This document shows, in pieces, positions 6,124 through 58,691 of a stretch of DNA of 64,000 nt. The DNA is from an uncultured Candidatus Rokubacteria bacterium. GTDB taxonomy: Bacteria > Methylomirabilota > Methylomirabilia > Rokubacteriales > CSP1-6. Both the position numbers and the translations under genes were made by a program. Numbering within the stretch: position 1 is the stretch's first letter; each line of letters opens with the position of its first letter. A model generated the notes under the pieces. The model was not told the DNA's origin. It was given only the letters and a program-made list of their open reading frames with translations, and did not search any database. The stretch covers positions 1,760,001-1,824,000 of the forward strand of contig CAVYTA010000006.1 of the NCBI GenBank assembly GCA_963771355.1, read 5' to 3'.

Positions 6124-6546
6124 TCACTGGAGATAGGCGGCGAGGTCGGGCACGCTCGGCGCCAGGTCGGGGCGCGGCGGCATGACCTTGGTAGGACGCT
6201 TGGGCTTGTAGGCGGGCGGGTACTCCCCCCGAACCACCCGTGCCTCGAGCAATGCGGGCGAGGCCCCCTTCACTGCCGGCCCCAAGGGGCCGTCCTTGGT
6301 GGGATCGGGGTTGTGGCAGGCCACGCACTGGCCCAGCCAGACTTGCTTGCCCTTATCCGCTGAGCCCCTGGACGGCGGCACCGCCGCCACCGGTTCGACC
6401 GGCGCCTTCTCGGCGGGCGCCGGCGCCGAGGCGGAGGGGGCCGGTGGGGCGCTCTTCGCTCCGGGCGGCGGCGGCTGGTCGCCGCAAGCGGCGACCACGA
6501 GCATGGCCGCGGCCAGCCCCGCGGCGCGGCGGACGCCCCGCCTCAC
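6124..6546 (-). CDS. Monoheme cytochrome c lipoprotein
   Basis: Lipobox VAAC, Pro/Ala linker, CVACH, distal MPP. Confidence 0.85.
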   Translation of the reverse strand: MRRGVRRAAGLAAAMLVVAACGDQPPPPGAKSAPPAPSASAPAPAEKAPVEPVAAVPPSRGSADKGKQVWLGQCVACHNPDPTKDGPLGPAVKGASPALLEARVVRGEYPPAYKPKRPTKVMPPRPDLAPSVPDLAAYLQ

Positions 6547-7130
6547 TCGGCGAGGTCCGGAAGCAGCGCCGCCCGGGTCTCGTCGGAGAGGCGCGTCCGC
6601 GCCCGGTCCGCGGGGTGATCCAGCACCAGGTGCACCTCGGCCTCGCGAAACGCGCGCGCCGCCTCGGGCGAGAAGCGGAAGCGGACGAAGTGCACCGCGG
6701 CGAGCTTGCCCTTCTCCTCGTCGGAGTGACCGGCCTCGAACTCACCGGGCACCGCGAACTCCCGGCCCACCTGCAGCCACACGCATTGCGCGGTGTCGAT
6801 GCCCATCAGCTCGTCCAGGATGGGCTGGATGCGCGCCATGTCCTCGATCTCGATGAAGAGCGTCGCGGACAGCTCGCGGGGCCCCGGTAAGAGCGCGTTG
6901 TAGACGTCGATCTCCTCCCGCACCTTGGCGTCGTCGGCGATGCGCTCGGCGCGGCACATCTCCTGGATCTGGAACAGCACCGTCTCGCGGTTCTCGAAGA
7001 CGAGCGAGAGGTACCGTCCCACCGAGACGCGCCGCCGGCGCTTGAGCTCGATCACGCTCGCCCGCCGCGCGTCGCGGACCTTCTCGTACTCGAAGAAGTT
7101 GATCACCTCGTCCGGCCGGATCTTGTCCAT
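6543..7130 (-). CDS. DUF3501 family protein
   Basis: FENRETVLFQIQEMCRAERI, YNALLPG..ELSATLFIEI, AVHFVRF; follows rubrerythrin and FeS oxidoreductase. Confidence 0.85.
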   Translation of the reverse strand: MDKIRPDEVINFFEYEKVRDARRASVIELKRRRRVSVGRYLSLVFENRETVLFQIQEMCRAERIADDAKVREEIDVYNALLPGPRELSATLFIEIEDMARIQPILDELMGIDTAQCVWLQVGREFAVPGEFEAGHSDEEKGKLAAVHFVRFRFSPEAARAFREAEVHLVLDHPADRARTRLSDETRAALLPDLAE

Positions 7131-7138
7131 GGCCCCGC

Positions 7139-8422
7139 TCACTCCTCCACCTCGAGGCCGTAGGCCGAGGCGAGGATGCGGATGGGGTGCTCGGCGGTAC
7201 GGCCGGTGCCTTGGTTGATCTGCAACGCGGCCAGCGGGCAGTCGGTAGCCACCCGATCGGGTCGCGCCGCCTCGATGTCCTTGAACAGCGGCTCGGCCAG
7301 CTTCATGGAGAGCTGGAAGTACTCTTTCTTCATGCCCCAGGTCCCGTCCACCGCGGAACAGCGCTCCACCGTCTCCACCTCGGCCCCGGTGAGCCGCAGC
7401 ACGTCGGCGGAGCGCGTGCCCATGTTCTGCGCCTTGAGATGGCAGGGCAGCTGATACGCGATCTTCCTCGGCGGCCGCGGGAAGCGCGTGTCCAGGCGCC
7501 CCTGCGCGTGAAGGCCGGACAGGTACTCGAAGAGGTCGCGGGTGTGGGCGGCCACGAGGTTCGCGTCCTCCGACCCGTCCAGCCACGGATACTCCTGCTT
7601 GAGCATGTAGGAGCAGGTGGGACCCGGCACCACGATCTCGCGCCCTTCCCGCACCGCCTGCGCGAGGCTCTGGGCATTGTCCGCGATGAGGGCCTTGGCC
7701 TCCTTGACCGCGCCCCCGTCGAGGTACGGCATGCCGCAGCAACGCTGCGCGGGCAGGGACACGTCCACGCCGTTCTTCTCCAGCACTGCCACCATCGCCT
7801 TGCCGGTGCCGGGGTCGTTGTATTCCACCGAGCACGTGGCGAAGAGCGCGACCTTCAAATTGGCCGGGGCCGCCAGCGGCGCCGGCACGGTCGGGCGGCG
7901 GCGCTGGTCGAACCACTTCGAGAACGTCTCGCGGTGGAAGCGAGGGAGCTGGCGACCCTTGTGGATGCCGACCACCGACTGCATCACCGCCCGGTTGGGC
8001 GGGAACTCGTTCATCCAGTTCGAGAGCGGGGCGGTCAGGCTGCCCAGCCGCCCCACCAGCTCGGTATTGCCGAGGAAGCGGTCCTGCAGGGTGACGCCCT
8101 GCGCCCGCGCCTCCGCCGAGCGCGCGCGCAGCATGAGGCGGGGGAAATCTACCTGCCACCGGTGCGGCGGAGTGTACGGGCAGTGGTTGTAGCAGAGCTT
8201 GCACTGGTAGCAGAGATCCACCACTTCCTTCACGTCGGCGGCGGAAAGCTTCTCCACGTCCCCGTCCACCGCGTCGACGTCCAGGCGGTCGAACATCACC
8301 TTGAACGACGGGCAGAGCGGCAAGCAGCGCCGGCAGCCGGCGCAGATGTCGTAGACGCGGCGCAGCTCGTGGTCCACCGCGTCCTGCTTCCAGAATTCCG
8401 GCTGCCTGATGTCGAGCGTCAT
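7139..8422 (-). CDS. Rubrerythrin-associated Fe-S oxidoreductase (GlpC/HdrD-like)
   Basis: CAGCRRCLPLC, CYQCKLCYNHC, CCGMP and a second CCG-like domain. Confidence 0.88.
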   Translation of the reverse strand: MTLDIRQPEFWKQDAVDHELRRVYDICAGCRRCLPLCPSFKVMFDRLDVDAVDGDVEKLSAADVKEVVDLCYQCKLCYNHCPYTPPHRWQVDFPRLMLRARSAEARAQGVTLQDRFLGNTELVGRLGSLTAPLSNWMNEFPPNRAVMQSVVGIHKGRQLPRFHRETFSKWFDQRRRPTVPAPLAAPANLKVALFATCSVEYNDPGTGKAMVAVLEKNGVDVSLPAQRCCGMPYLDGGAVKEAKALIADNAQSLAQAVREGREIVVPGPTCSYMLKQEYPWLDGSEDANLVAAHTRDLFEYLSGLHAQGRLDTRFPRPPRKIAYQLPCHLKAQNMGTRSADVLRLTGAEVETVERCSAVDGTWGMKKEYFQLSMKLAEPLFKDIEAARPDRVATDCPLAALQINQGTGRTAEHPIRILASAYGLEVEE

Positions 8423-8453
8423 CCGTTTGGCTCTCAGGTGAAGAAAGGGGCGG

Positions 8454-8489
8454 CGGGCCGGGCGCCCGGGGATCACGGCGCCCGGCCCG
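8454..8489 (-). terminator. GC-rich hairpin just after rubrerythrin (stabiliser or partial terminator)
   Basis: Perfect 13-bp stem CGGGCCGGGCGCC/GGCGCCCGGCCCG, 10-nt loop, weak T tract downstream on - strand. Confidence 0.5.
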
Positions 8490-8495
8490 GCACGA

Positions 8496-8945
8496 TCAGA
8501 TCGCGTCGGCTGGATCTTTCCCGGCCACCTGCGTGAGACCCTTGGCGAAGCGGCCGGCGTGGGACTTCTCCGCCTTGGCCAGCGTCTCGAACCACTCCGC
8601 CAGCTCGGGGTAGCCTTCCTCGCGGGCGGTCTTGGCCATGCCGGGATACATCTGGGTGTACTCGTAGGTCTCGCCCGCCACCGCCGCCTTGAGATTCTTC
8701 TCCGTCTTGCCGATGGGCTCGCCGGTGGCAGGGTCCCCGACTTCCTTGATGAAGTCGAGATGCCCGAACGCATGACCCGTCTCCGCGTCGGCGGTGTCCT
8801 TGAACAGGCCCGCGATGTCCGGGAACCCTTCGATGTCGGCGACGCGGGCGAAGTAGAGGTAGCGCCGATTCGCCTGCGACTCTCCCGCGAAGGCCTCCTT
8901 GAGGTTCTCGTGGCTCTTGCTGCCCTTCAGGCTCTTCCCTGCCAT
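8496..8945 (-). CDS. Short rubrerythrin lacking rubredoxin domain
   Basis: NLKEAFAGESQANRRY, ETGHA, GETYEYTQMYP, EKSHA di-iron motifs. Confidence 0.95.
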   Translation of the reverse strand: MAGKSLKGSKSHENLKEAFAGESQANRRYLYFARVADIEGFPDIAGLFKDTADAETGHAFGHLDFIKEVGDPATGEPIGKTEKNLKAAVAGETYEYTQMYPGMAKTAREEGYPELAEWFETLAKAEKSHAGRFAKGLTQVAGKDPADAI

Positions 8946-16870: not shown

Positions 16871-17395
16871 CTACCCCCGCGTCAGCCGGGCCACGATGGC
16901 CTCGAACGCCTTGTCCGCCAGGTCGCGCACCTCGTCCCGGGTGAGCGGCTGGATGGGGTGCTGCACCATCACCGTCTCGTAGTCGTCCGCGCCCAGCGCC
17001 GACGCCTGCGCCCGTGCCGCCCGCTGGAACTCCGTCGAGATGACGGTGGCGGTGGGGATCCCGTGGTCCTCGAAAAATACGCCGTCGTGCACACTGCACG
17101 TTGTGCAGGACCCTCAGTCGGCGAGGCCCTCGATGAGCACCTCCGTCTCCTCGAGGATCTTCTTGCGCAGGTCCTCCGGCGCCGGGCGCGCGAAGGTGGG
17201 CTTCTTGCGGCGATGGATCGCCTTGGGCCGGTGCCGCTCGCGCAGCAACTCCTCCACGCGGTCCAGCAGGTGGTCGCCCTTGGCCTTGGAGATGTCGAGC
17301 AGGGTGATCACCTTCCCGTCGAGGGAGTCGGGACGCGGGGCGCGGTGCCGGGGCACCGCCACGGAGTCGGTGGGATCCAGGAATTCGTCGCTCAT
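16871..17395 (-). CDS. UGSC-family selenoprotein (in-frame UGA at 17116-17114 read as Sec), 174 aa
   Basis: Two same-frame ORFs join as ...EGLAD-U-GSCTTCSVHDG...GIPTATVIS; GGAGG RBS; hairpin directly 3' of UGA. Confidence 0.88.
17088..17107 (-). promoter_or_regulatory. Putative bacterial SECIS hairpin
   Basis: TGCAC-A-AC-[GTGCA]-GT-GTGCA beginning 7 nt after the UGA. Confidence 0.5.
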
Positions 17396-17403
17396 GTCGC
17401 CTC

Positions 17404-18459
17404 CTAGTCGGCCTCGATCTTGCGATGGACCATCCGCGACATCTTGGGAAACGTCCAGCCCGCCACCACCGCCGAGAAGCGGCCGGCGGTGCCGCCCGCC
17501 ACCACGAACTTGAGGTTGGCCGGCTCACGGAACTTGGCGATCAGCGTCTCCTCGGTGGCGGGGGCGGCGAACTTCGCCAGCACGTGGGCGGGCAGCCCCT
17601 CGCCGCCGTCCATGCCCGGGATGAGCGCGCGCACCGGCTTGCGCAGGCGCTCCCACAGGAAGGCGCGCATGCGGCCCCGGTCCCACCCGTCGGCGGCGAG
17701 CAGGCGCGCGTGCTCGGGCGAGAGCACGATCAGGGTATCGCCGTGGTGAGTGGACTTGTGATGGGAGATCACCGCCAGCGAGTGCGCGAGGGTGACGAGG
17801 AGGTCCTCGCCCGTGCGGCTCAGGTGGTCGTAGACGGTCTGCGGGGCCGCGCCGGCGAAGGCGCTGATCACGCTCTCCCCGGGCGCGAAGCCCGCCTCCA
17901 TCGAGAGCGGCGACCAGGGGCTCTCCTCCTCGTTCTCCGCGATGCAGTAAGTGAAGTAGCCTGGATGCGCGAGGGTGGACATGGTGATGCCGCCGGCGGC
18001 GGCCCCGCCCACGTTGCGTATGATGAGGCGCAGCGCCCGCCCGATGGTGGCGTTGGCGCGATGGCCGGGTCCGAACACCCCCGCTCCCGCGTTGAAGTCG
18101 AGCCGCTTGCGCACCGGGCCGTTCACGATGAAGAGCGGCGCCGCGCTGTTGGTGGTGGCGGCCACGCCGTGGAGGTCGAAGGCGTCGTCGCACATCGCTT
18201 CCACCCCGGCGATCACCACCGGCAGGTATTCGGGCCGGCAGCCCGCCATCACCGCGTTGACCGCGATCTTCTCCACGGTGGCGTGGCCGAAGTTGGGCGG
18301 GACGAGGGCGACCAGGCCATCGGCGGGGCGACCCGCGGCGGCCACCGCCGCCGCCACCCGCTCGCGGGTGGGCGGCACCACCGGCAGCCCGTCGGTCACC
18401 CCCCGCGCGTCGAGCGCCTCGAAGGGGTCATCGGCGGGGTCCACCTCGCGACCGCTCAC
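17404..18459 (-). CDS. Conserved uncharacterised protein (TDGLPVVPPT motif), partner of UGSC protein
   Basis: TDGLPVVPPT, TVEKIAVNAVMAGCRPEY, RANATIGRALRL, ENEEESPW; 8 nt from the UGSC gene. Confidence 0.8.
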   Translation of the reverse strand: MSGREVDPADDPFEALDARGVTDGLPVVPPTRERVAAAVAAAGRPADGLVALVPPNFGHATVEKIAVNAVMAGCRPEYLPVVIAGVEAMCDDAFDLHGVAATTNSAAPLFIVNGPVRKRLDFNAGAGVFGPGHRANATIGRALRLIIRNVGGAAAGGITMSTLAHPGYFTYCIAENEEESPWSPLSMEAGFAPGESVISAFAGAAPQTVYDHLSRTGEDLLVTLAHSLAVISHHKSTHHGDTLIVLSPEHARLLAADGWDRGRMRAFLWERLRKPVRALIPGMDGGEGLPAHVLAKFAAPATEETLIAKFREPANLKFVVAGGTAGRFSAVVAGWTFPKMSRMVHRKIEAD

Positions 18460-19106
18460 GACCGACAGGCGCGAAAATTCGCGTAGTCACCGGCAGCGCG
18501 ACTCTTGGTATCGTCGGCGTCGGTGAGGACGGCGATGCCCGCGAGCTTCGGGGTCTCGGCCTCCTTGAAGCGCGCGCGATACTCCTCGGCCACGTTGACA
18601 CGCTCCTCCACCCACTGACCCTTCGCGCCATTCCCGCTCCGGAGCACGCGCGCCTGCGTGAGCCCCGCGCTCGAGGTCAGCGTCGTTCCCACCGGCACCA
18701 CCGCGCTCCAGATGTACTTGAGCGACTTCAGGGACACGGAGGAGTGGGGCCACACCGCGTACACGGACAGCGCGCTGTCGTTGGTCTTGCTGTTGCGCTC
18801 GTCCGATCCCTTGGGATGCTCCCCCAGCCGCCAGGCCCAGGCGAGGATGGGGTAGGCGGCGTGGTCCCAGGGCTGCTCGCGGGCGGCCTGGATGCCGATG
18901 CCCTCGGAGACCGCCCTCAAGAATCGGCGCCCCCCTTCCTCGCGCACCGTGTAGACGCCGCGCCCGGAGTCCTTCCGCAGCTTCCAGTCGACCGGGAACT
19001 CGCCGACCTTGGAGCGCGAGAAGTCCTCGAGCACGATACAGTCGGCCGCCCGCGCGGAGGGAGCGGCGAGGAGGACGATGAGGCCGACGAGGACGAGGTA
19101 TCGCAT
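18456..19106 (-). CDS. DUF3047-like secreted protein
   Basis: Signal peptide; PILAWAWR, LKYIWS, WVEERVNV, IAVLTDADDT. Confidence 0.78.
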   Translation of the reverse strand: MRYLVLVGLIVLLAAPSARAADCIVLEDFSRSKVGEFPVDWKLRKDSGRGVYTVREEGGRRFLRAVSEGIGIQAAREQPWDHAAYPILAWAWRLGEHPKGSDERNSKTNDSALSVYAVWPHSSVSLKSLKYIWSAVVPVGTTLTSSAGLTQARVLRSGNGAKGQWVEERVNVAEEYRARFKEAETPKLAGIAVLTDADDTKSRAAGDYANFRACRS

Positions 19107-19111
19107 GTCCG

Positions 19112-20521
19112 CTACCGCCCTCGGCGCCACCACTGGTGGACGAGCTGGTCCACCACCTGGACGAGCTGCGCCACCGTGCGGCACTCCTTGACGATGTCGC
19201 ACGAGGGCGAGTAGAGCGGCATCACGCTGTCGCCGATGCCCCAGCCCCACTGTCCCTCGGGGTTGAGCCAGATGATGCCCTTCACGCGCTCGCGGATCTG
19301 GCGGATGGCCCAGGCCTGGGGATCGTTGTAGTTGTTGCGCGCATCCCCGAGGACCAGCACGGTCGTCTTGCGGTCCAGCGTGTCCAGCTCCGTGCGGACG
19401 AAGCGGTTGAAGGCATAGCCGAAGTCGGAGCGGCAGTGATAGTCCACCGGCGAGCCCTTGAGCGCCCACTCGATGGCCCGGTCCACCGGGTAGGTCTTGA
19501 AGGCCTGAGTGACCTCGGCGATCTCCGACACGAACACGTAGGAGCGCATCCGGGAGAAGCAGTCCTGGAGGCTCCACACCAGCTGGAGCATGAAGCGCGA
19601 CGCGTTGCGCACCGAATCGGACACGTCGCAGAGGGTGACGAGCTTGGGCTTCTCCCGGTGCCGGCGCCGGTAGCGTACCTCCATGGGGATGCCGCCATAC
19701 TGCAGGCTCTTCCGGATGGTCCGCCGCGAGTCGAGCCGCCCCTTCTCCTCCTGGCGCTGGCGGAGGGCGAGGGCGTCCTTGATCTTGCGCGCGAGCCGCG
19801 CCACCACCGCCTTCATCTGCGCCACCTCGTCCGGCGACAGCGCGAAGAGGGGCTTGTCGGTGAGGACCTCGCGGGTGAGCTTCTCGCCTTCACGGTAGGC
19901 CCGCCGCTCCAGCTCGCGCTCCACGTGCTGGCGGATCATGCGCCGGAAGGCTTCCAGGCGCAGGTCGAGATAGTTGCGGATGCGGGCGAGCTGGCCGGGA
20001 TCGAGCCCCTGCGCTTCCAGCATCTGCATGATGCGGGAGAGATCGCGCTCGATGGCCTCCCAGTCGAACTTGTCGTAGATGCGCCGGGAGAAGTAGCCGA
20101 TCTGGAGGAAGTACATGAGCCGCTCGAGCCCGGCCCCCTGCCCCTGGCCGCGGATCGCCATCTCCATCTCCGCGCCCTCGCCCTGGAGCATGAGCTCGGT
20201 CATCTCGTCCAGCTCGAGCCCGTCCTGGGCCATGAGCTTGTCGAGCATCTCGCGCATCTTCGGGTCCTCGGGCCCCAGGGCCTTCTTGAGCCCGGCCCCC
20301 AGCGCCTCGAGGTCGAGGAAGTAGAGGTCGAAGATGCGGTCGAAGGTCGGCAGGTCGCGGGCCTCCTTCACCAGGGTCGCGGCCAGCGCGGACTTGAAGG
20401 TCTCCCGCGTCTCGACGCCGATCTCGGTGGAGGCGGAGAGCGCGTCCATGGCCTCGCTGGTGGAGATGCGCAGCTCCGCCCGGCGCAGATCGCTGATGAA
20501 CTCCAGGATGCGTTGGTCCAT
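19112..20521 (-). CDS. VWA-domain protein, CoxE-like
   Basis: MIDAS-like CDVSDSV, LGDARNNY, IWLNPE, WGIGDSVM. Confidence 0.88.
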   Translation of the reverse strand: MDQRILEFISDLRRAELRISTSEAMDALSASTEIGVETRETFKSALAATLVKEARDLPTFDRIFDLYFLDLEALGAGLKKALGPEDPKMREMLDKLMAQDGLELDEMTELMLQGEGAEMEMAIRGQGQGAGLERLMYFLQIGYFSRRIYDKFDWEAIERDLSRIMQMLEAQGLDPGQLARIRNYLDLRLEAFRRMIRQHVERELERRAYREGEKLTREVLTDKPLFALSPDEVAQMKAVVARLARKIKDALALRQRQEEKGRLDSRRTIRKSLQYGGIPMEVRYRRRHREKPKLVTLCDVSDSVRNASRFMLQLVWSLQDCFSRMRSYVFVSEIAEVTQAFKTYPVDRAIEWALKGSPVDYHCRSDFGYAFNRFVRTELDTLDRKTTVLVLGDARNNYNDPQAWAIRQIRERVKGIIWLNPEGQWGWGIGDSVMPLYSPSCDIVKECRTVAQLVQVVDQLVHQWWRRGR

Positions 20522-20574
20522 CTAGTAGCCTATGCGCGATTTATCATGGTTTGGCGGTTTGGCCTCTTCGCCCC

Positions 20575-20726
20575 GGGGGCTCATCGGGGCGGGGTCTCGA
20601 TGGGGAGCACCCGCGCGCGGGGGCTCATCGGGGCGTCGTTTCCACCTTGAACACTCGCGCGTGGGGGCTCATCGGGGCGTGGTCTCGATGGGAACTGTCG
20701 CGCCGCGCGGCGGGGGCTCATCGGGA
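20575..20726. repeat. Degenerate tandem repeat, 4 copies of GGGGGCTCATCGGG(GCG)
   Basis: Cores start at 20575, 20619, 20663, 20712 (period 44, 44, 49). Confidence 0.85.
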
Positions 20727-21272
20727 GAAGGTCACCCAGGAGGACTTGAACACGTCCTCGTTGCCGTCGCGGCTGATGGGGTGGAGCCGGCCGTCCTCCA
20801 GTCGCAGGAGCCCGTGGAAGGACCCGCGGCACACGAAGTGGCTCATGCGGAACTTCCAGCCGAGCGAGCCGAGGGGGACCTCCTCGTCCAGCTCCACCGC
20901 CCGGGTCACGTCGGGGACGTCGCCGACCAGGTGCAGGACCCGCACCGGCCCCTCCGCGCAGCGCAGGCCGAGCACCACTTTGTAGGAGAGGCCCTGGCGG
21001 AACGTCTCCACCGTCATCTCGCCCGGGTGGAGGAGATGCGGCACCGCGTCCGGCATGGTGGCCCGGAAGAAGTCGCGCGGCGTCGGGTGGACGTAGTAGA
21101 AGTGCCAGCGGCCGGCGGCGGAGATCCAGAGCTTGGTGTACTCGCCCAGCGCGCCCGAGACGCAGCGGCCGCCCTCGATGAACACCGGCCCGGACGGCCC
21201 GAGCTCGGGGAGCCGGATGCGGGGCGCCGGAAACCAGAGCTCCCGGAACTCGGAAAGACCCGCCCACTCCAT
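20718..21272 (-). CDS. Hypothetical protein
   Basis: 184-aa ORF 9 nt after the MoxR stop, natural composition, no recognised family. Confidence 0.65.
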   Translation of the reverse strand: MEWAGLSEFRELWFPAPRIRLPELGPSGPVFIEGGRCVSGALGEYTKLWISAAGRWHFYYVHPTPRDFFRATMPDAVPHLLHPGEMTVETFRQGLSYKVVLGLRCAEGPVRVLHLVGDVPDVTRAVELDEEVPLGSLGWKFRMSHFVCRGSFHGLLRLEDGRLHPISRDGNEDVFKSSWVTFSR

Positions 21273-21281
21273 CGTCGCCGC

Positions 21282-22202
21282 CTACTTGACCGGCGCCTCG
21301 GCGAGCACCTTGTCCAGCGCGCCCCGCACCCGCTCGAGGTCCTTCTCGTGCTTGACGAGCATGGTCAGGGTGGACTCCACCAGCTCCCGGTCCAGCGAGT
21401 CCGCGTTCAAGATCACCAGCGAGCGCGCCCAGTCGAGGCTCTCCGACACGGACGGCGCCTTCCGGAGCTCCAGTCCGCGGATCTTGTTCACCACCCCGAC
21501 CACCGCCTGGGCCAGGCGCTCCGGAAGCTCCGGCACCTTGAGCCGGATGATGGCGAGCTCCTCGTCCGGGGGCGGAAAGTCGATGAAGAGATGGAGGCAC
21601 CGGCGCTTGAGGCCGTCCGACAGCTCGCGCGCGTTGTTCGAGGTGAGGACGACCAGCGGGATGTTGGTGGCCTTGATGGTGCCGAGCTCGGGCACGGAGA
21701 CCTGAAAATCCGAGAGGACCTCGAGCAAGAACGCCTCGAATTCCGGCTCGGCCTTGTCGATCTCGTCGACCAGCAGCACCACCGGATCCGTCGACTCGAT
21801 GGCCTGGAGCAGCGGCCGCGGAGACAGGAAGCGGTGGGAGAAGAAGGCGTCGTCCTGGCCGGAGATCTTGGCCACCGCGTCGGGCAGCGAGGGCGCGTCG
21901 GCGATCAGCTCGCCGATGCGATCGCGGAGGAGCTGGGTATACAGGAGCTGCTTGGCGTACTTCCACTCGTAGAGCGCCTTGCCCTCGTCGAGCCCCTCGT
22001 AACACTGGAGACGAATGAGCCGCCGGCCCGCGATGTCGGCCAGCGTCTTGGCCAGCTCCGTCTTCCCGACGCCCGCGGGCCCCTCGACCAGCACCGGCCG
22101 GCCCATCTTCGCCGCGAGGTACACGACGGTGCAGATGCGCCGGTTGGCGATGTAGCGGGCGTTCTTGAAGCTCTGCTGGACGTCCTCCACCGATCGGAAC
22201 AT
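21282..22202 (-). CDS. MoxR-family AAA+ ATPase, CoxD-like
   Basis: EGPAGVGKTELAK, RLQCYEGLD, LLVDEIDKA, LTSNNARELSDGLKRRC; AAGGAG RBS. Confidence 0.92.
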   Translation of the reverse strand: MFRSVEDVQQSFKNARYIANRRICTVVYLAAKMGRPVLVEGPAGVGKTELAKTLADIAGRRLIRLQCYEGLDEGKALYEWKYAKQLLYTQLLRDRIGELIADAPSLPDAVAKISGQDDAFFSHRFLSPRPLLQAIESTDPVVLLVDEIDKAEPEFEAFLLEVLSDFQVSVPELGTIKATNIPLVVLTSNNARELSDGLKRRCLHLFIDFPPPDEELAIIRLKVPELPERLAQAVVGVVNKIRGLELRKAPSVSESLDWARSLVILNADSLDRELVESTLTMLVKHEKDLERVRGALDKVLAEAPVK

Positions 22203-22287
22203 GGCGGCTCCTTGGAATGAATTGGCGTTCATCCTAGCATCACGGCGCGGGTTTGGCGAGCGGCCCGCGCGGTGGGACACTGAAGCC

Positions 22288-25159: not shown

Positions 25160-26332
25160 ATGAGCACCGCGAAGGACGCCGTCACTCAGGCCGTCGACGG
25201 CATCGCCGACGAGCTCGAAGCCCTGTCCCGCCGTATCCACGATCATCCGGAGCTGGGCTACCAGGAAAAGCAGGCGGCAGGCTGGCTGACCGGGTTCCTC
25301 GCCGCCAAGGGCTTCAAGGTCGAATCGGGGGTGGCGGGCGTGGAGACCGCCTTCCGCGCGACCATCGAGACGGGCGACGGCCCCACCATCGCCATCCTGT
25401 GCGAGTACGACGCGCTGCCGGGCATCGGGCATGCGTGCGGCCACAACGTCATCGCCGCCTCCGGCGCGGGCGCGGGCGCGGCGCTGGCGCTGTCGAAGAG
25501 CCGGCTGCCCAAGGGCCGCGTCCAGGTCATCGGGACGCCGGCGGAGGAGGGCGGCGGCGGGAAGAACCGCCTCATCAAGGGCGGCGTCTTCAAGGACGTC
25601 GACTGCGCCATGATGATCCACGGCTTCGACCGCACCATCCTGCACCAGGATCTCCTCGGCATCGTGCGGGGGACCTTCGAGTTCCACGGCAAGGCCTCCC
25701 ACGCCTCCGCCGATCCCTGGGAGGGAATCAACGCCCTCGATGGCTGTATCGCAATGTTCAACGCAGTGGCCATGCTGCGCCAGCAGGTGCGGCCCGACTG
25801 CCGCATCCACGGGATCATCACCAACGGGGGTGCCGCCGCCAACATCATCCCGGAGTACGCGGCGGCCGTCTTCTACGTGCGCGCCCCGCGCATCGACGTC
25901 ATGTGGGACCTCTACAAGCGCGTGGTGGCCTGCGCGGAGGGCGCGGCCAAGGCGACGGGCGCCGCGGTGAAGGTGACGCAGCAGACCGACAATGTCTACG
26001 AGCCCATGAAGCGGAACCAGACCCTGCTCGACCTCTTCGCCGCGAACATGACCGCGGTCGGCCTCGCCGAGGGCCCCGCGGTGCTCGACCGGCTCGGCTC
26101 CTCCGACGTCGGCAACGTGAGCCAGGTGATCCCCACCATCCAGCCCATGATCGGCATCGCCCCGCTGGGGACGGCCATCCACACGCGCGAATTCGCCGAC
26201 GCGGCGGTGACGCCGCTGGCGCGGGCTGGGCTCCTCGCCGCCGCCAAGACCATGGCCCTCACCACCTTCGATCTCCTCGCCGATCCGGCCCGGGTGCGAG
26301 CGGCGAAGGACGAGTTCGCCCGGAGCCGGTAG
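25160..26332 (+). CDS. M20 amidohydrolase, copy 1
   Basis: HPELGYQE, EYDALPGIGHACGHN, GTPAEE, GSSDVGNVS. Confidence 0.92.
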   Translation: MSTAKDAVTQAVDGIADELEALSRRIHDHPELGYQEKQAAGWLTGFLAAKGFKVESGVAGVETAFRATIETGDGPTIAILCEYDALPGIGHACGHNVIAASGAGAGAALALSKSRLPKGRVQVIGTPAEEGGGGKNRLIKGGVFKDVDCAMMIHGFDRTILHQDLLGIVRGTFEFHGKASHASADPWEGINALDGCIAMFNAVAMLRQQVRPDCRIHGIITNGGAAANIIPEYAAAVFYVRAPRIDVMWDLYKRVVACAEGAAKATGAAVKVTQQTDNVYEPMKRNQTLLDLFAANMTAVGLAEGPAVLDRLGSSDVGNVSQVIPTIQPMIGIAPLGTAIHTREFADAAVTPLARAGLLAAAKTMALTTFDLLADPARVRAAKDEFARSR

Positions 26333-26334
26333 CC

Positions 26335-27537
26335 ATGACCGGCGCGAATCCGACGCTCGACGCCGCGAAGAGCAAGGTTGCGGAGGCGGTGGACCGGCTG
26401 AGCGGCGAGCTGGAGGCGCTGAGCCTCCAGATCCACGGCAATCCGGAGCTCTGCTTCAAGGAGGAGAAGGCCTCCGCGTGGCTCACCGAGTTCCTCGGCA
26501 AGCACGGGGCCCAGGTGGAGCGGGGGATCGGCGGGCTTCCCACCGCGTTCCGGGCCACCATTCCGGGGCAAGGCCCCGGGCCGACGGTGGCCATTCTCGC
26601 CGAGTACGACGCGCTGCCCGGCATCGGGCATGCCTGCGGGCACAACATCATCGCGACCTCCGGCGCGGGAGCGGGCGCCGCGCTCGCCGCCGCGCTCACC
26701 ACTCTGCCCTTCGCGGGGCGCATCCAGGTCATCGGCACTCCCGCCGAGGAGGGCGGCGCGGGCAAGGTGCGCCTCATGGAGGCGGGCGTCTTCAAGGACG
26801 TGGACGCGGCCATGATGATTCACGGGCGCCCGGGCACCCAGGTCTGGCGGCCGAGCCTCGGCATCATCAAGGTGAAGGTGGAGTTCTTCGGCCGCGCCGC
26901 CCATGCCTCGTCCTGGCCGTGGCGGGGCGTCAACGCGCTCAACGCGATGATCCAGCTCTTCGTGTCGCTCGATCAGATGCGCCAGCAGGTGAAGCCGGAC
27001 GCGCGCATCCACGGGGTGATCACCAAGGGCGGCGACCAGGCCAATATCATTCCCGAGCACACCGCGGCGGAGTTCTACCTGCGCGCGCCCACGCGCGACT
27101 ACTGCCACGAGCTGCTCCGGAAGTTCGAGGCGGTGGCGGAAGGCGCGGCGCTGGCCACCGGCTGCACGGCCAAGGTGATGCCGGACGCCACTATCCATGA
27201 CCCGCTCAAGCCGAACTTCACCATGGCCGCGCTGTTCAAGCAGAACCTCGCGCGCATCGACTTCCCCGAGGACCCGGACGACGGTCAGGCCGGCTACGGC
27301 TCCACCGACTGCGGCAACGTGAGCCAGGCCCTCCCCACCATTCACCCGTACATCCGCATCAGCCCCGACGGGATTCCCGGCCATTCGCGGGAGTTTGCCG
27401 AGTGGGCCAAATCTCCGATCGCGCATACCGGCATGGTGGCGGCGGCCAAGACGCTGGCCATGACGGCGCTGGATCTTCTCGCCGCGCCCGACGAATTGCG
27501 AAAGGCGAAGGCGGAATTCGCGTCGACCGCCGGCTAG
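26335..27537 (+). CDS. M20 amidohydrolase, copy 2
   Basis: EYDALPGIGHACGHN, GTPAEE, GSTDCGNVS. Confidence 0.92.
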   Translation: MTGANPTLDAAKSKVAEAVDRLSGELEALSLQIHGNPELCFKEEKASAWLTEFLGKHGAQVERGIGGLPTAFRATIPGQGPGPTVAILAEYDALPGIGHACGHNIIATSGAGAGAALAAALTTLPFAGRIQVIGTPAEEGGAGKVRLMEAGVFKDVDAAMMIHGRPGTQVWRPSLGIIKVKVEFFGRAAHASSWPWRGVNALNAMIQLFVSLDQMRQQVKPDARIHGVITKGGDQANIIPEHTAAEFYLRAPTRDYCHELLRKFEAVAEGAALATGCTAKVMPDATIHDPLKPNFTMAALFKQNLARIDFPEDPDDGQAGYGSTDCGNVSQALPTIHPYIRISPDGIPGHSREFAEWAKSPIAHTGMVAAAKTLAMTALDLLAAPDELRKAKAEFASTAG

Positions 27538-38370: not shown

Positions 38371-39174
38371 TGCTCAACGGGCCCAAGTTCGTGGAGGTCT
38401 CGGACCTGGTGCGGGTGTTTTCCACCCCCGACGGGCCGGTGCGGGCGCTGGACGGCGTGTCCTTCGACGTCCGCCGGGGCGAGTTCCTCTCCATCGTGGG
38501 CCCGTCGGGCTGCGGCAAGAGCACCCTGGCCATGCTCATCGCGGGGCTCCTGCGCCCGACCTCGGGCGTGATCGTGCTGGACGGCCGCGCGGTGGACCGG
38601 CCCCAGACCGATCTCGGCATCGTGTTCCAGAACGCGGTGCTGCTGGCCTGGCGCAGCGCGCTGGACAATGTCCTCCTCCAGCTCGAGATGCGCGGGCTTG
38701 ATCCGACGGAGATACCGGGACCGGGCGCTCGAGCTACTACGGAGCGTGGGGCTGGAGGGCTTCGCGCGCCGGCTCCCTCACGAGCTGTCGGGCGGCATGC
38801 GCCAGCGCGTGGCCATCTGCCGGGCCCTCATCCACGAGCCCCCGCTGCTGCTCATGGACGAGCCCTTCGGCGCGCTGGATGCGCTCACCCGCGACCAGAT
38901 GACGCTCGACATCCAGGGCATCTGCGCGCGCGGCGGCAAGACGGTGCTCTTCATCACGCACTCCATCACCGAGGCGGTGTTCCTGTCGGATCGCGTGATC
39001 GTCATGACGCCGCGGCCGGGCCGCATCGACAGCGTGGTGGAGGTCGAGCTGCCCCGCCCCCGACGGCTGGCCGTGCGCGAGCACCCGGCGTTCGCGGGGT
39101 ACGCCCGCGCGATCCGCGACCGCTTCATGGCCCAGGGCGTCCTGCGCGACATCGAAGAGGCCCCCACGTCATGA
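38370..39174 (+). CDS. ABC ATPase (NitT/TauT type), frameshift near 38705
   Basis: GPSGCGKST in one frame; LSGGMRQR and MDEPFGALD in the next. Confidence 0.85.
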
Positions 39175-56688: not shown

Positions 56689-58022
56689 GCGCGTCTCGCC
56701 GCCTCGCCGCCGTCGCCGCTCTCCTGCTCGTGGTGGGGGTGAGCCTGGTCGTCTGGCCCCCCGTTCGGCCCGCGCGCTCGCAGGCTCCCGACGTGCTCCT
56801 CAATGTCCTCGGGGGGGGCGCGAAGAAGCTGAACCTCTTCATGCCGGACTTCACCGTGGTGGGCGGCCCCGACCCGGCGGGGCTGTCGCGCTCGCTCGCC
56901 GAAGTGACGGCCGGCGACCTCAAGTTCTCGGCGCTCTTCTCGGTGGTGGGCGGCCAGCCGGCGCTCCCCGCCGCGAACCCGGAGGCGCTCAAGAAGGCCT
57001 GGACGGACGCCGCGGCGGCGGGCGCGCATGCAGCGCTGCACGGCCTCCTCACCCCGCGTGCCGACCGCCTCGAGGGGGAGCTGCGGCTGTACGACCTCAC
57101 CTCGCCCGAGCTGCGCCTCATCGCGACGAAGAAGATCGCGGTGGTACCCGCCGAGGCGCGGCGGCTCGCCCACAAGATGGCCGACGAGGTGGTGCTCCAG
57201 TTCACCGGGGAGCCCGGCGTGGCCGACACCAAGATCGCCTACGTGGCGCCGCGCGACGGCAGCAAGGAGATCGGGGTGATGGACTACGATGGGGCGGGCG
57301 CGGTGCCGCTGACCGCGAACCAGTCCATCAACCTCTCACCGCGCTGGAGCCCGGACGCTCGCTCGCTCGCCTTCACGTCGTACATGCGGGGCTACCCCTA
57401 CCTCTACCGGCTCTTCGCCTTCGAGCGCCGACCGGTGCAGCTCCTGGCCGGCTTCCTCGGCATCAACTCGTCGCCCGCATGGAGCCCGGACGGCAAGCAG
57501 GTGGCGCTGACCTTGTCCAAGGACGGTAATCCCGAGATCTATATCCTGACCCTGGCCACCGGCGCGTTCCGCCGGCTCACCATCCATCCCGGCATCGACA
57601 CCGAGCCCACCTGGTCGCCCACCGGACGGGAGCTCGCCTTCGTATCCGACCGGGCGGGACCGGCGCAGGTCTACGTGATGGACGTGGAAGGCACCAATGT
57701 CCGGCGCCTGACCCAGGCCGGCTTCAACACCCAGCCGAGGTGGTCTCCTAAAGGGGACTCCATCGCCTACACCTCCCGGCAAGGCGCGCATGACATCTGG
57801 ATCGTCGCGCCCGACGGGTCGAACGTGCGGCGTCTCACCACCGGATCCGGTGACAACGAGAGCTCGTCATGGGCCCCGAACGGCCGGCACCTGGCGTTCC
57901 AGTCCACCCGCCAGCGCGGCCCGAGAATTTTCACCATGCTCCCCGACGGCTCCGAGCAGCAGCCGGTGCCCAGCGGGCCCACCGAAGCGGCAAGTCCTGC
58001 ATGGTCGCCGCGCCTTCCGTGA
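56685..58022 (+). CDS. tolB: TolB
   Basis: PD40 repeats (WSPDG), AHKMADEV, MDYDG. Confidence 0.93.
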   Translation: MSASRRLAAVAALLLVVGVSLVVWPPVRPARSQAPDVLLNVLGGGAKKLNLFMPDFTVVGGPDPAGLSRSLAEVTAGDLKFSALFSVVGGQPALPAANPEALKKAWTDAAAAGAHAALHGLLTPRADRLEGELRLYDLTSPELRLIATKKIAVVPAEARRLAHKMADEVVLQFTGEPGVADTKIAYVAPRDGSKEIGVMDYDGAGAVPLTANQSINLSPRWSPDARSLAFTSYMRGYPYLYRLFAFERRPVQLLAGFLGINSSPAWSPDGKQVALTLSKDGNPEIYILTLATGAFRRLTIHPGIDTEPTWSPTGRELAFVSDRAGPAQVYVMDVEGTNVRRLTQAGFNTQPRWSPKGDSIAYTSRQGAHDIWIVAPDGSNVRRLTTGSGDNESSSWAPNGRHLAFQSTRQRGPRIFTMLPDGSEQQPVPSGPTEAASPAWSPRLP

Positions 58023-58080
58023 TAGGATGACCTCGATTTTCACTCGGATCTTTAGCGTTCCAAAAGGAGGTTTTCACACT

Positions 58081-58691
58081 ATGGCTCAACGACGGGGTTC
58101 TTTGCTTGCGGTCATGCCCCTGCTCCTCTTGACACTGTTCCTCGTGGGCTGCCCCAAGCGCCCCGCCACTCCGGTCGCGTCCGCTCCCGCGCCGACTGGA
58201 TCGGCCATGGCTCCCGCGCCCGGACCGGCCCCGGCACCGGCACCGCCCGCAGCGCCGGGCCCGTCGGCGCTGGCCCCCGCCGCGCCCGCGCCCGGAGGAG
58301 CCGCCACCACCTCCCCCCGGGTACGCCGCCGCGGCCGAGTGAGTTCACCGAGAACACCAATCTCAAGGACGTGTTCTTCGACTTCGACCGGTACGACGTA
58401 CGGGCGGGCGACGCGAAGATCCTCGACGGCAACGCGGCGTGGCTGAAGTCCAGCGACAACAACTTGGTCCTCATCGAGGGACACTGCGACGAGCGCGGTA
58501 CCAACGAGTACAACCTCGCGCTGGGCGAGCGCCGCGCCAAGTCCACGATGAACTACCTCGTGGCCCAGGGCATCCAGGCCAACCGCATCACGATCATCTC
58601 GTATGGCAAGGAGCGCCCGGTCTGCAGCGAGAAGAACGAGAGCTGCTGGCAGAAGAATCGTCGGGCACATTTCCTGGTCAAGGCCCGTTAG
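58081..58691 (+). CDS. pal: Peptidoglycan-associated lipoprotein, frameshift in C6 run at about 58313-58318
   Basis: Lipobox LVGC in frame 1; FFDFD, IEGHCDERGTNEYNLALGERRA, NRR in frame 2. Confidence 0.9.

Follow-up and report, generated by a model that had tools for sequence, protein, structure and literature searches.

The UGSC gene and its reading frame

The window, as we call the whole 64,000-nucleotide stretch of DNA that was analysed, belongs to a genome assembly that is 99.8% complete. On its minus strand lies a gene of the UGSC family, preceded directly by a longer, unnamed gene, here called the partner (Table 1). An earlier, sequence-only reading had described two ORFs of 93 aa (17395-17114) and 73 aa (17092-16871) that share one frame around a single TGA; a check of the ORFs bore this out and supplied the strand, which that reading had not given. 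Read-through yields ...GLAD-U-GSCTTC-SVHD..., as claimed. The adjacent partner gene, and the relationship to GrdB and PrdB described below, had been passed over. The stop codon of the partner falls inside the Shine-Dalgarno-like sequence of the UGSC gene, and from this overlap with AGGAGG we infer that the two genes are translationally coupled.

Table 1. Features of the UGSC locus and its immediate surroundings (window positions; offsets with a plus sign count downstream of the TGA)
Feature	Position	Strand	Remarks
UGSC-family gene, predicted selenoprotein	16871..17395	-	174 aa, UGA as Sec94; ATG at 17395, TAG stop 16873-16871
In-frame TGA (predicted Sec94) in D-U-G-S-C-T-T-C	17114..17116	-	read-through and homologue alignment
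Family-conserved SECIS-like hairpin CGUGCA-GUG-UGCACG	17086..17100	-	6 bp, GUN loop at +20..+22; element spans +14..+28
Alternative hairpin of the sequence-only reading, start +7	17088..17107	-	preferred fold of the single sequence; no covariation support
Shine-Dalgarno-like AGGAGG	17400..17405	-	overlaps partner TAG stop, 4 nt ahead of UGSC ATG; seen in the sequence
Unnamed partner gene ('Unknown_1' of Zhang and Gladyshev 2008)	17404..18459	-	351 aa; directly upstream of UGSC; GTG start, TAG stop
DUF3047 gene	18456..19106	-	stop overlaps partner GTG start; syntenic only in close relatives
VWA (CoxE-like) gene, 184-aa gene, MoxR-type AAA gene	19112..22235	-	upstream; lineage-level neighbours, outside the conserved unit

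The assignment to the UGSC family, also proposed earlier, was upheld by two profiles. The read-through protein scored 165.3 bits against NCBIfam NF041046 (cut-off 125), covering model positions 1-147 of 147, while the separate halves scored 54.8 bits (positions 1-68) and 89.4 bits (positions 70-147), each under the cut-off; Pfam PF24696 gave the same pattern of whole against halves, with 174.4 bits for the read-through protein (cut-off 25). Homology, whose failure to continue past the UGA had been named as an argument against a selenoprotein, is thus continuous, with positions 1-68 before the TGA and 70-147 after it. Most database relatives of the protein are cut to about 95 aa, the position of the TGA, and the closest matches bear names that indicate Rokubacteria/Methylomirabilota. 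Contigs from four DNA runs (four studies, one of which may be the source sample) cover positions 17114-17116 and list no other letter there, so the TGA is not a sequencing error.

Among 88 aligned UGSC members, UxxC (Sec or Cys, then Cys) is invariant, and H146 is conserved. The UxxCxxC motif noted earlier is true of the window protein but not family-wide: its third Cys is kept in 65 members and replaced in 23 of the 88, and the codon lies in the RNA stem described below, from which we take the family motif to be UxxC. On sequence evidence, the two short ORFs are confirmed as one mis-called gene of the catalogued UGSC family (the 'UGSC-containing protein' of Zhang and Gladyshev), and this gene almost certainly encodes a selenoprotein. 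It shares with the family the full-length match, U-G-S-C, the in-frame UGA and rare Cys homologues, and nothing distinguishes the window copy from other members.

The family, its Sec codon and its fusion domain are already in print, in passages of PMC1976440, PMC2398784, PMC9312934, PMC13188914 and PMC7539508; PMC13326102 gave no mention of UGSC. The relevant passages of PMC2398784 and PMC13188914 treat UGSC as likely thioredoxin-like and assign it no function, the partner appearing in them solely as a fusion, which agrees with the earlier description of a predicted selenoprotein family with Cys homologues and no established function. In the GOS table of PMC2398784, UGSC is the fifth most frequent selenoprotein family, with 255 sequences.

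Conservation of the UGA and the Sec machinery

The TGA was present in all six UGSC paralogues of the source genome, in 30/30 top-scoring orthologue loci (the window's own included), and in all of the best 150 of 198 UGSC matches, which were spread over 41/41 genomes. The number of UGSC paralogues reached at most 11 per genome in this 198-match, 41-genome set. In a wider sample of the phylum, 149 of the best 150 of 632 UGSC matches carried TGA. The single exception (L239; G106:C64:4946-5350), which bears the UGSC family label in the database (P0004), is a degenerate orthologue with CGA for TGA and an in-frame internal deletion, and on these grounds we rejected it as a Cys form.

Genuine Cys forms were found in a set of 80 loci from many phyla, chosen by the partner gene alone, 62 of which held 64 UGSC copies: 62 of the copies had TGA and two had TGC (L160 and L162). 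Together with at least eight partner-fused proteins among those listed, these two copies place Cys in alignment with the UGA, a comparison that the sequence-only reading had proposed. Of the two Cys carriers, one genome had no selA match and the other had selA; Candidimonas nitroreducens (L162) is a cultured Cys-type carrier.

That reading had further implied that Sec machinery would be found elsewhere in the genome, and had counted its lack in a complete genome against the proposal. All four components were present above their cut-offs: tRNA-Sec (69 bits), selA (555), selB (367) and selD (266). The tRNA-Sec gene lies at C7:111447 and is followed 2-3 kb further downstream by selA and selB; selD is on contig C4. 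The assembled selA (G000:C7:112960-114398; L082:4961-6402) contains a one-base frameshift near C7:113190-113225, after about 85 codons, with the first 66 model positions falling in another frame. Five same-genus genomes were searched, and selA was open in all three in which the region was found. Two genes of the window, encoding an ABC ATPase (38382-39171, plus strand) and a Pal-like lipoprotein (58012-58688, plus strand), show one apparent frame change each, probably assembly indels. Since selA is open in the same-genus genomes and two other apparent one-base shifts occur in the window, the selA frameshift is likelier to be an assembly error than a real break. Of the 151 genomes in the phylum sample, 133 gave a selA match.

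A conserved SECIS-like hairpin

A SECIS-like hairpin is present, as the sequence-only reading had reported, but the conserved element is not the one starting 7 nt downstream of the UGA that it described. Taken by itself, the window sequence prefers the +7 hairpin (-11.9 kcal/mol, with a pair probability of about 0.8), whose energy was no better than that of shuffled sequences (z -0.02 to -0.6); we set folding energy aside as a test, because with z near 0 it is uninformative in DNA of 70% GC. The long +7 stem was rejected as the conserved element: it showed no compensatory changes in 60 distinct homologue sequences, and 500/500 shuffles did as well. A short +7 stem (TGCAC/GTGCA) was also rejected; it is paired in 96% and matched by 3/500 shuffles, and its loop, which has no G here, stands 11 nt from the UGA (-3.5 kcal/mol).

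The covariation score of the +14..+28 hairpin, by contrast, was reached by none of 500 shuffles (60 distinct sequences, whose relatedness can inflate the test). Its five inner pairs were formed in 60/60 of these sequences, with two-sided changes at two pairs, and RNAalifold picks this hairpin. Hairpins differ in both Cys copies, in the H-U-S-T-C paralogue (L020) and in a U-G-A-C copy (the second of L135), and these were left out of the 66-row RNA alignment. Of the 62 TGA copies, 61 have an intact inner stem; in the two Cys copies it is disrupted. The codon for the third Cys lies within the stem, and where it switches to Gly or Trp, the bases paired with it change as well. All 30 of 30 orthologue loci share the same codons at +5..+10, among them AGT, which accounts for 2% of the Ser codons in the genome, whereas most other codons of the gene vary. 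The geometry of the element follows 42 of the 118,255 TGA triplets of the genome (0.036%) and five of the six UGSC paralogues.

The bacterial SECIS model, as given in the legend of Fig. 2A of PMC13188914, asks for a loop of 3-9 nt, a stem of 4-16 bp, G in the first two loop positions and 16-37 nt from UGA to loop. The +14..+28 hairpin agrees with it in loop (3-nt GUG), stem (6 bp), G and spacing (19 nt). Its energy is -7.4 kcal/mol in context and -6.3 isolated, against a model limit of -7.5 in that source and -11.9 for the competing +7 fold, and its pair probability in the window sequence alone is 0.18.

The partner gene

The window partner corresponds to the 'Unknown_1' domain shown fused to UGSC in Fig. 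S1A of PMC2398784, according to the supplement text. It matched nothing in Pfam or NCBIfam, and 129 partner sequences gave only scattered weak matches to 15 NCBIfam families, none of them a pyruvoyl proprotein of the GrdE/PrdA type. A direct comparison with three GrdE-like proproteins scored 0.1%, and the partner is thus unrelated to them, so that substrate activation must differ from that of the Stickland reductases. The polar residues D23, C74 (127/129), N136, R141, C172 (121/129), E175 and H250 are conserved in the 129 sequences. The structural model of the partner has a pLDDT of 94.5. Its best Foldseek match (fumarate hydratase alpha; E 6.9e-4, TM 0.28) and its best VIA match (Z 5.1) were not accepted as fold homology. 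At 50% identity, 7,866 clusters match the partner profile, and an Atlas search with the partner returned unnamed clusters only, plus one UGSC-bearing cluster.

Partner and UGSC genes occur together. In the source genome, a partner adjoins or is fused to each of the six UGSC paralogues, and two of its eight partner copies stand alone (G000:C6:2676276-2677253 and C5:215717-216673); these two are 53-54% identical to the window partner, with no UGSC gene within 4-5 kb. The sixth paralogue (G000:C5:163680-165323) reads H-U-S-T-C-A-P, forms an in-frame fusion with a partner domain and is without the GUN-loop hairpin geometry. Of 64 loci chosen by UGSC alone, 60 had a partner no more than 1.5 kb away, a figure obtained from 70/84 by setting aside 20 loci of genomes picked for a lone partner (10 without a partner nearby). 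Conversely, UGSC adjoined the partner in 62 of the 80 loci chosen by the partner alone, and the genomes of the 18 others all carried UGSC elsewhere. The partner was missing from 2 of 23 orthologue loci. All 20 genomes listed without UGSC were also without the partner, 19 of them having selA, and all five listed with UGSC had the partner; the genomes counted are related, and these counts are not independent.

A scan of 66 long partner matches revealed fusions to UGSC in both orders, to AhpC-TSA/redoxin (5), to FeThRed_B (ferredoxin-thioredoxin reductase beta; 2) and to the thioredoxin-reductase-like Pyr_redox_2 (1); some of these redox-domain fusions have no UGSC in the chain. By motif, 42 of the 80 partner loci encode a redoxin-like N-terminal extension, and two of three extensions tested match AhpC-TSA. 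In most loci with redoxin-fused partners a UGSC gene is still adjacent.

Neighbouring genes and transcripts

In the 23 orthologue loci, the pair lies between a MoxR/VWA block (19 loci) and a convergent pair of thiolase and ChsH2-like genes (21 loci). Of the 80 diverse loci, just 2-3 have these neighbours, and each of those is an orthologue-type locus, which points to inherited gene order. Neighbour mining of the 80 loci yielded genes resembling acyl-CoA dehydrogenase (13) and SDR (12), both named by eye, CoA-transferase III (11) and lactate racemase (4), and no constant third gene beside the pair; as the flanking genes vary, the neighbourhood indicates no substrate. In four Acidobacteriota loci (L105, L132, L149 and L161) a lactate-racemase-like gene (Lar_N/LarA_C) directly follows UGSC. 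In eight alphaproteobacterial loci, from Phenylobacterium, Henriciella and relatives (L104, L110, L111, L118, L124, L127, L139 and L140), the pair lies close downstream of selB; selA was confirmed in four of these, and in two a Pyr_redox_2 gene resembling an Ndh-selD fusion follows. Two paralogue pairs of the source genome (G000:C6:2546377 and C6:2278834) are directly upstream of genes that by eye resemble TRAP transporter components, a possible clue to the substrate.

No sigma-70-like promoter was found for the locus. Contigs of four metatranscriptomes cover parts of the partner and UGSC genes, some without mismatch; such contigs show neither strand nor level.

Fold and relationship to selenoprotein B

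An AlphaFold model of the UGSC protein, with Cys in place of Sec, has a pLDDT of 94 and five beta-alpha units; the halves flanking the TGA fall in a single predicted domain, and residue 94 opens the helix that follows strand 3. The fold search returned generic proteins of flavodoxin/Rossmann-like type (best Z 10.9, with many ties), and no thioredoxin chain was among the top 50 listed, although one could still rank lower. UGSC shares with thioredoxin-fold UxxC selenoproteins (Trx/Prx/Grx-like) a UxxC at the N-terminus of a helix, and is genetically coupled to redoxin domains via the partner, but appears to differ from them in fold: a flavodoxin/Rossmann-like (beta-alpha)5 sandwich is predicted, in which the motif follows the third strand. 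When the PDB was searched by sequence with the UGSC and partner proteins and with both profiles, nothing significant was found.

Profile comparisons suggested another kinship. With E up to 10 allowed, 27 of the 88 UGSC members matched GrdB, 24 GrdF, 12 PrdB and 9 GrdH (best E 1.5e-5, to GrdB), although the window protein itself matched none of the GrdB, GrdF, GrdH and PrdB models even at E 10, and the family cut-off was not reached. HHalign of UGSC against 30 GrdB/PrdB-like proteins from genomes gave 91.9% (E 7e-7, 103 columns) with Sec aligned on Sec, and 74% with the motif masked; the maximum among 30 reversed or shuffled controls, 29 of which keep the motif block, was 1.3%. The two align colinearly from end to end, apart from an insertion in GrdB that is about 50 residues long. 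Queries resembling GrdB and PrdB found no relative in the PDB, so the fold search could not test the link, which accounts for their absence among the fold matches.

On these comparisons, UGSC is a distant homologue of the Sec domain of selenoprotein B (GrdB, GrdF, GrdH, PrdB; TIGR01917, TIGR01918, TIGR04483, PF07355) that stands outside those families. The two have in common a colinear Sec domain, consisting of a strand, U-x-x-C, a helix, an E-x-x-G-I-P-T strand, H-P and a C-terminal helix; selenoprotein B likewise works with a larger partner subunit, as proposed here for UGSC, and the UxxCxxC described for GrdB in a passage of PMC13188914 recurs in the window protein. At 174 aa, however, UGSC is without the N-terminal region of GrdB and without the insertion after the first strand, has no adjacent pyruvoyl proprotein (GrdE/PrdA), and scores far under the selenoprotein-B cut-offs. 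PF07355 had no match in the source genome, in a search that gave no positive-control match either. Our literature search, judged from the UGSC passages of papers naming both, found no earlier link between UGSC and GrdB/PrdB. Many UGSC-bearing genomes also encode short PrdB-like UxxC genes with in-frame TGA (L167-L193), several with a GUG-loop hairpin at about +19 and none with a UGSC partner within 1.5 kb.

A proposed two-subunit reductase and its alternatives

We propose, with a probability of roughly 0.55, that UGSC and its partner form a two-subunit, thioredoxin-fed, Sec-dependent reductase; the proposal draws on sequence kinship, structural models and analogy. The scheme is modelled on the PrdA/PrdB pair of D-proline reductase, in which, according to the relevant part of PMC11229817, the Sec of PrdB attacks the substrate bound on PrdA and cannot be replaced by Cys. 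SelB would bind the +14..+28 hairpin, the competing +7 stem being melted by a ribosome with the UGA in its A site. From the model and the GrdB/PrdB alignment, Sec94 would lie in a flavodoxin-like domain, at the point where the helix following strand 3 begins. The partner would bind a small substrate and Sec94 would attack it there; Cys97 of the UxxC would resolve the adduct to a selenenylsulfide, which could be re-reduced via C74 and C172 of the partner and a thioredoxin-type donor, present as a fused domain in many partners. The number of paralogues per genome suggests many substrates, and the paralogue pairs probably differ in the substrate they use.

The main rival, which we consider unlikely though stronger than the other alternatives, accepts UGSC as a selenoprotein but makes it a general thiol/disulfide redox carrier that shuttles electrons to a partner doing the chemistry alone. 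The invariant UxxC (88/88) fits such a role, as do the redoxin, FTR-beta and TrxR domains fused to partners, some in chains without UGSC, and the literature passages that call UGSC 'likely Trx-like' (PMC2398784) or group it with Trx-like proteins (PMC13188914). The predicted five beta-alpha units with best matches to flavodoxin/Rossmann-like proteins argue against it, as does the sequence kinship with GrdB/PrdB, where Sec is the substrate nucleophile; and a UGSC gene persists beside redoxin-fused partners in most loci. It is improbable that the pair handles selenium or sulfur itself (carrying, detoxifying or recycling Se) rather than catabolizing an organic substrate. The eight alphaproteobacterial loci close to selB, with selA in four and an Ndh-selD-like gene in two, would suit that role, yet 72 of the 80 partner loci are arranged otherwise, selenoprotein genes can be expected beside their decoding genes even where no functional link exists, Cys forms occur (one of them in a genome that gave no selA match), and up to 11 paralogues per genome suggest many substrates.

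Slightly less probable again is a metal or Fe-S site formed by U-x-x-C-x-x-C and His, the pair then being a metallo-enzyme or cluster unit matured by MoxR-VWA chaperones. Three chalcogen residues and the conserved H146 could supply ligands, the best fold matches include chain 8s7v_H, from the activation complex of methyl-coenzyme M reductase (Z 10.1, rmsd 3.4, 132 aligned), and a VWA gene is nearby in 19/23 orthologue loci; but the third Cys is replaced in 23/88 members and its codon lies in an RNA stem, unrelated Rossmann-like proteins score as well as 8s7v (Z 9.5-10.9), and only 2 of the 80 diverse loci, both orthologue-type, have a VWA gene near. That the TGA is a true stop, leaving two small proteins or a pseudogene, is very improbable, even though the assembled selA is frameshifted and the hairpin is unremarkable by folding energy. 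In alignments that span many phyla the TGA keeps its column, and some homologues have Cys there; the second ORF would start at a GTG inside the hairpin without a Shine-Dalgarno-like sequence; the modelled halves form one domain; and selA is open in 3/3 same-genus genomes where it was found, with two other apparent one-base frameshifts in genes of the window.

Taken by itself, the window gene is an ordinary, mis-called case from a catalogued family. The reductase reading offers a concrete candidate enzyme of two genes, given by the GrdB/PrdB kinship and the constant partner, for a family without assigned function since 2007-2008 that is among the most abundant orphan selenoproteins in environmental metagenomes. 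In its broader form, for which we see the odds as about even, UGSC would be the minimal, free-standing version of the GrdB/PrdB selenium domain, making up with a partner of apparently undescribed fold a widespread class of thioredoxin-driven Sec-nucleophile reductases that dispense with the pyruvoyl proprotein and have diversified into paralogous pairs (six here) for different substrates. Candidate key residues are U94 and C97 of UGSC and C74, C172, R141, E175 and H250 of the partner. Natural Cys-type single-chain fusions and the Cys form of Candidimonas nitroreducens would be forms in which the candidate enzyme could be assayed, and the partner, with its 7,866 clusters and no clear solved relative, is a structural target.

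Other observations

Further in-frame TGA codons followed by hairpins occur in the source genome, for example at C5:239367-, C6:246854-, C5:32287+, C6:274454+, C6:327815+, C6:2502154- and C7:248670+. By eye, such candidates resemble peroxiredoxin, BCP, AhpD, redoxin and CoA-transferase types, and if borne out they would give the genome a sizeable selenoproteome. Elsewhere in the window, genes for rubrerythrin, a CCG/4Fe-4S oxidoreductase and DUF3501 stand in a row at 6543-8945 (minus strand) with a Fur/PerR-like ORF ahead of them, identified by eye, and tandem M20 peptidase/amidohydrolase genes lie at 25160-27537 (plus strand).
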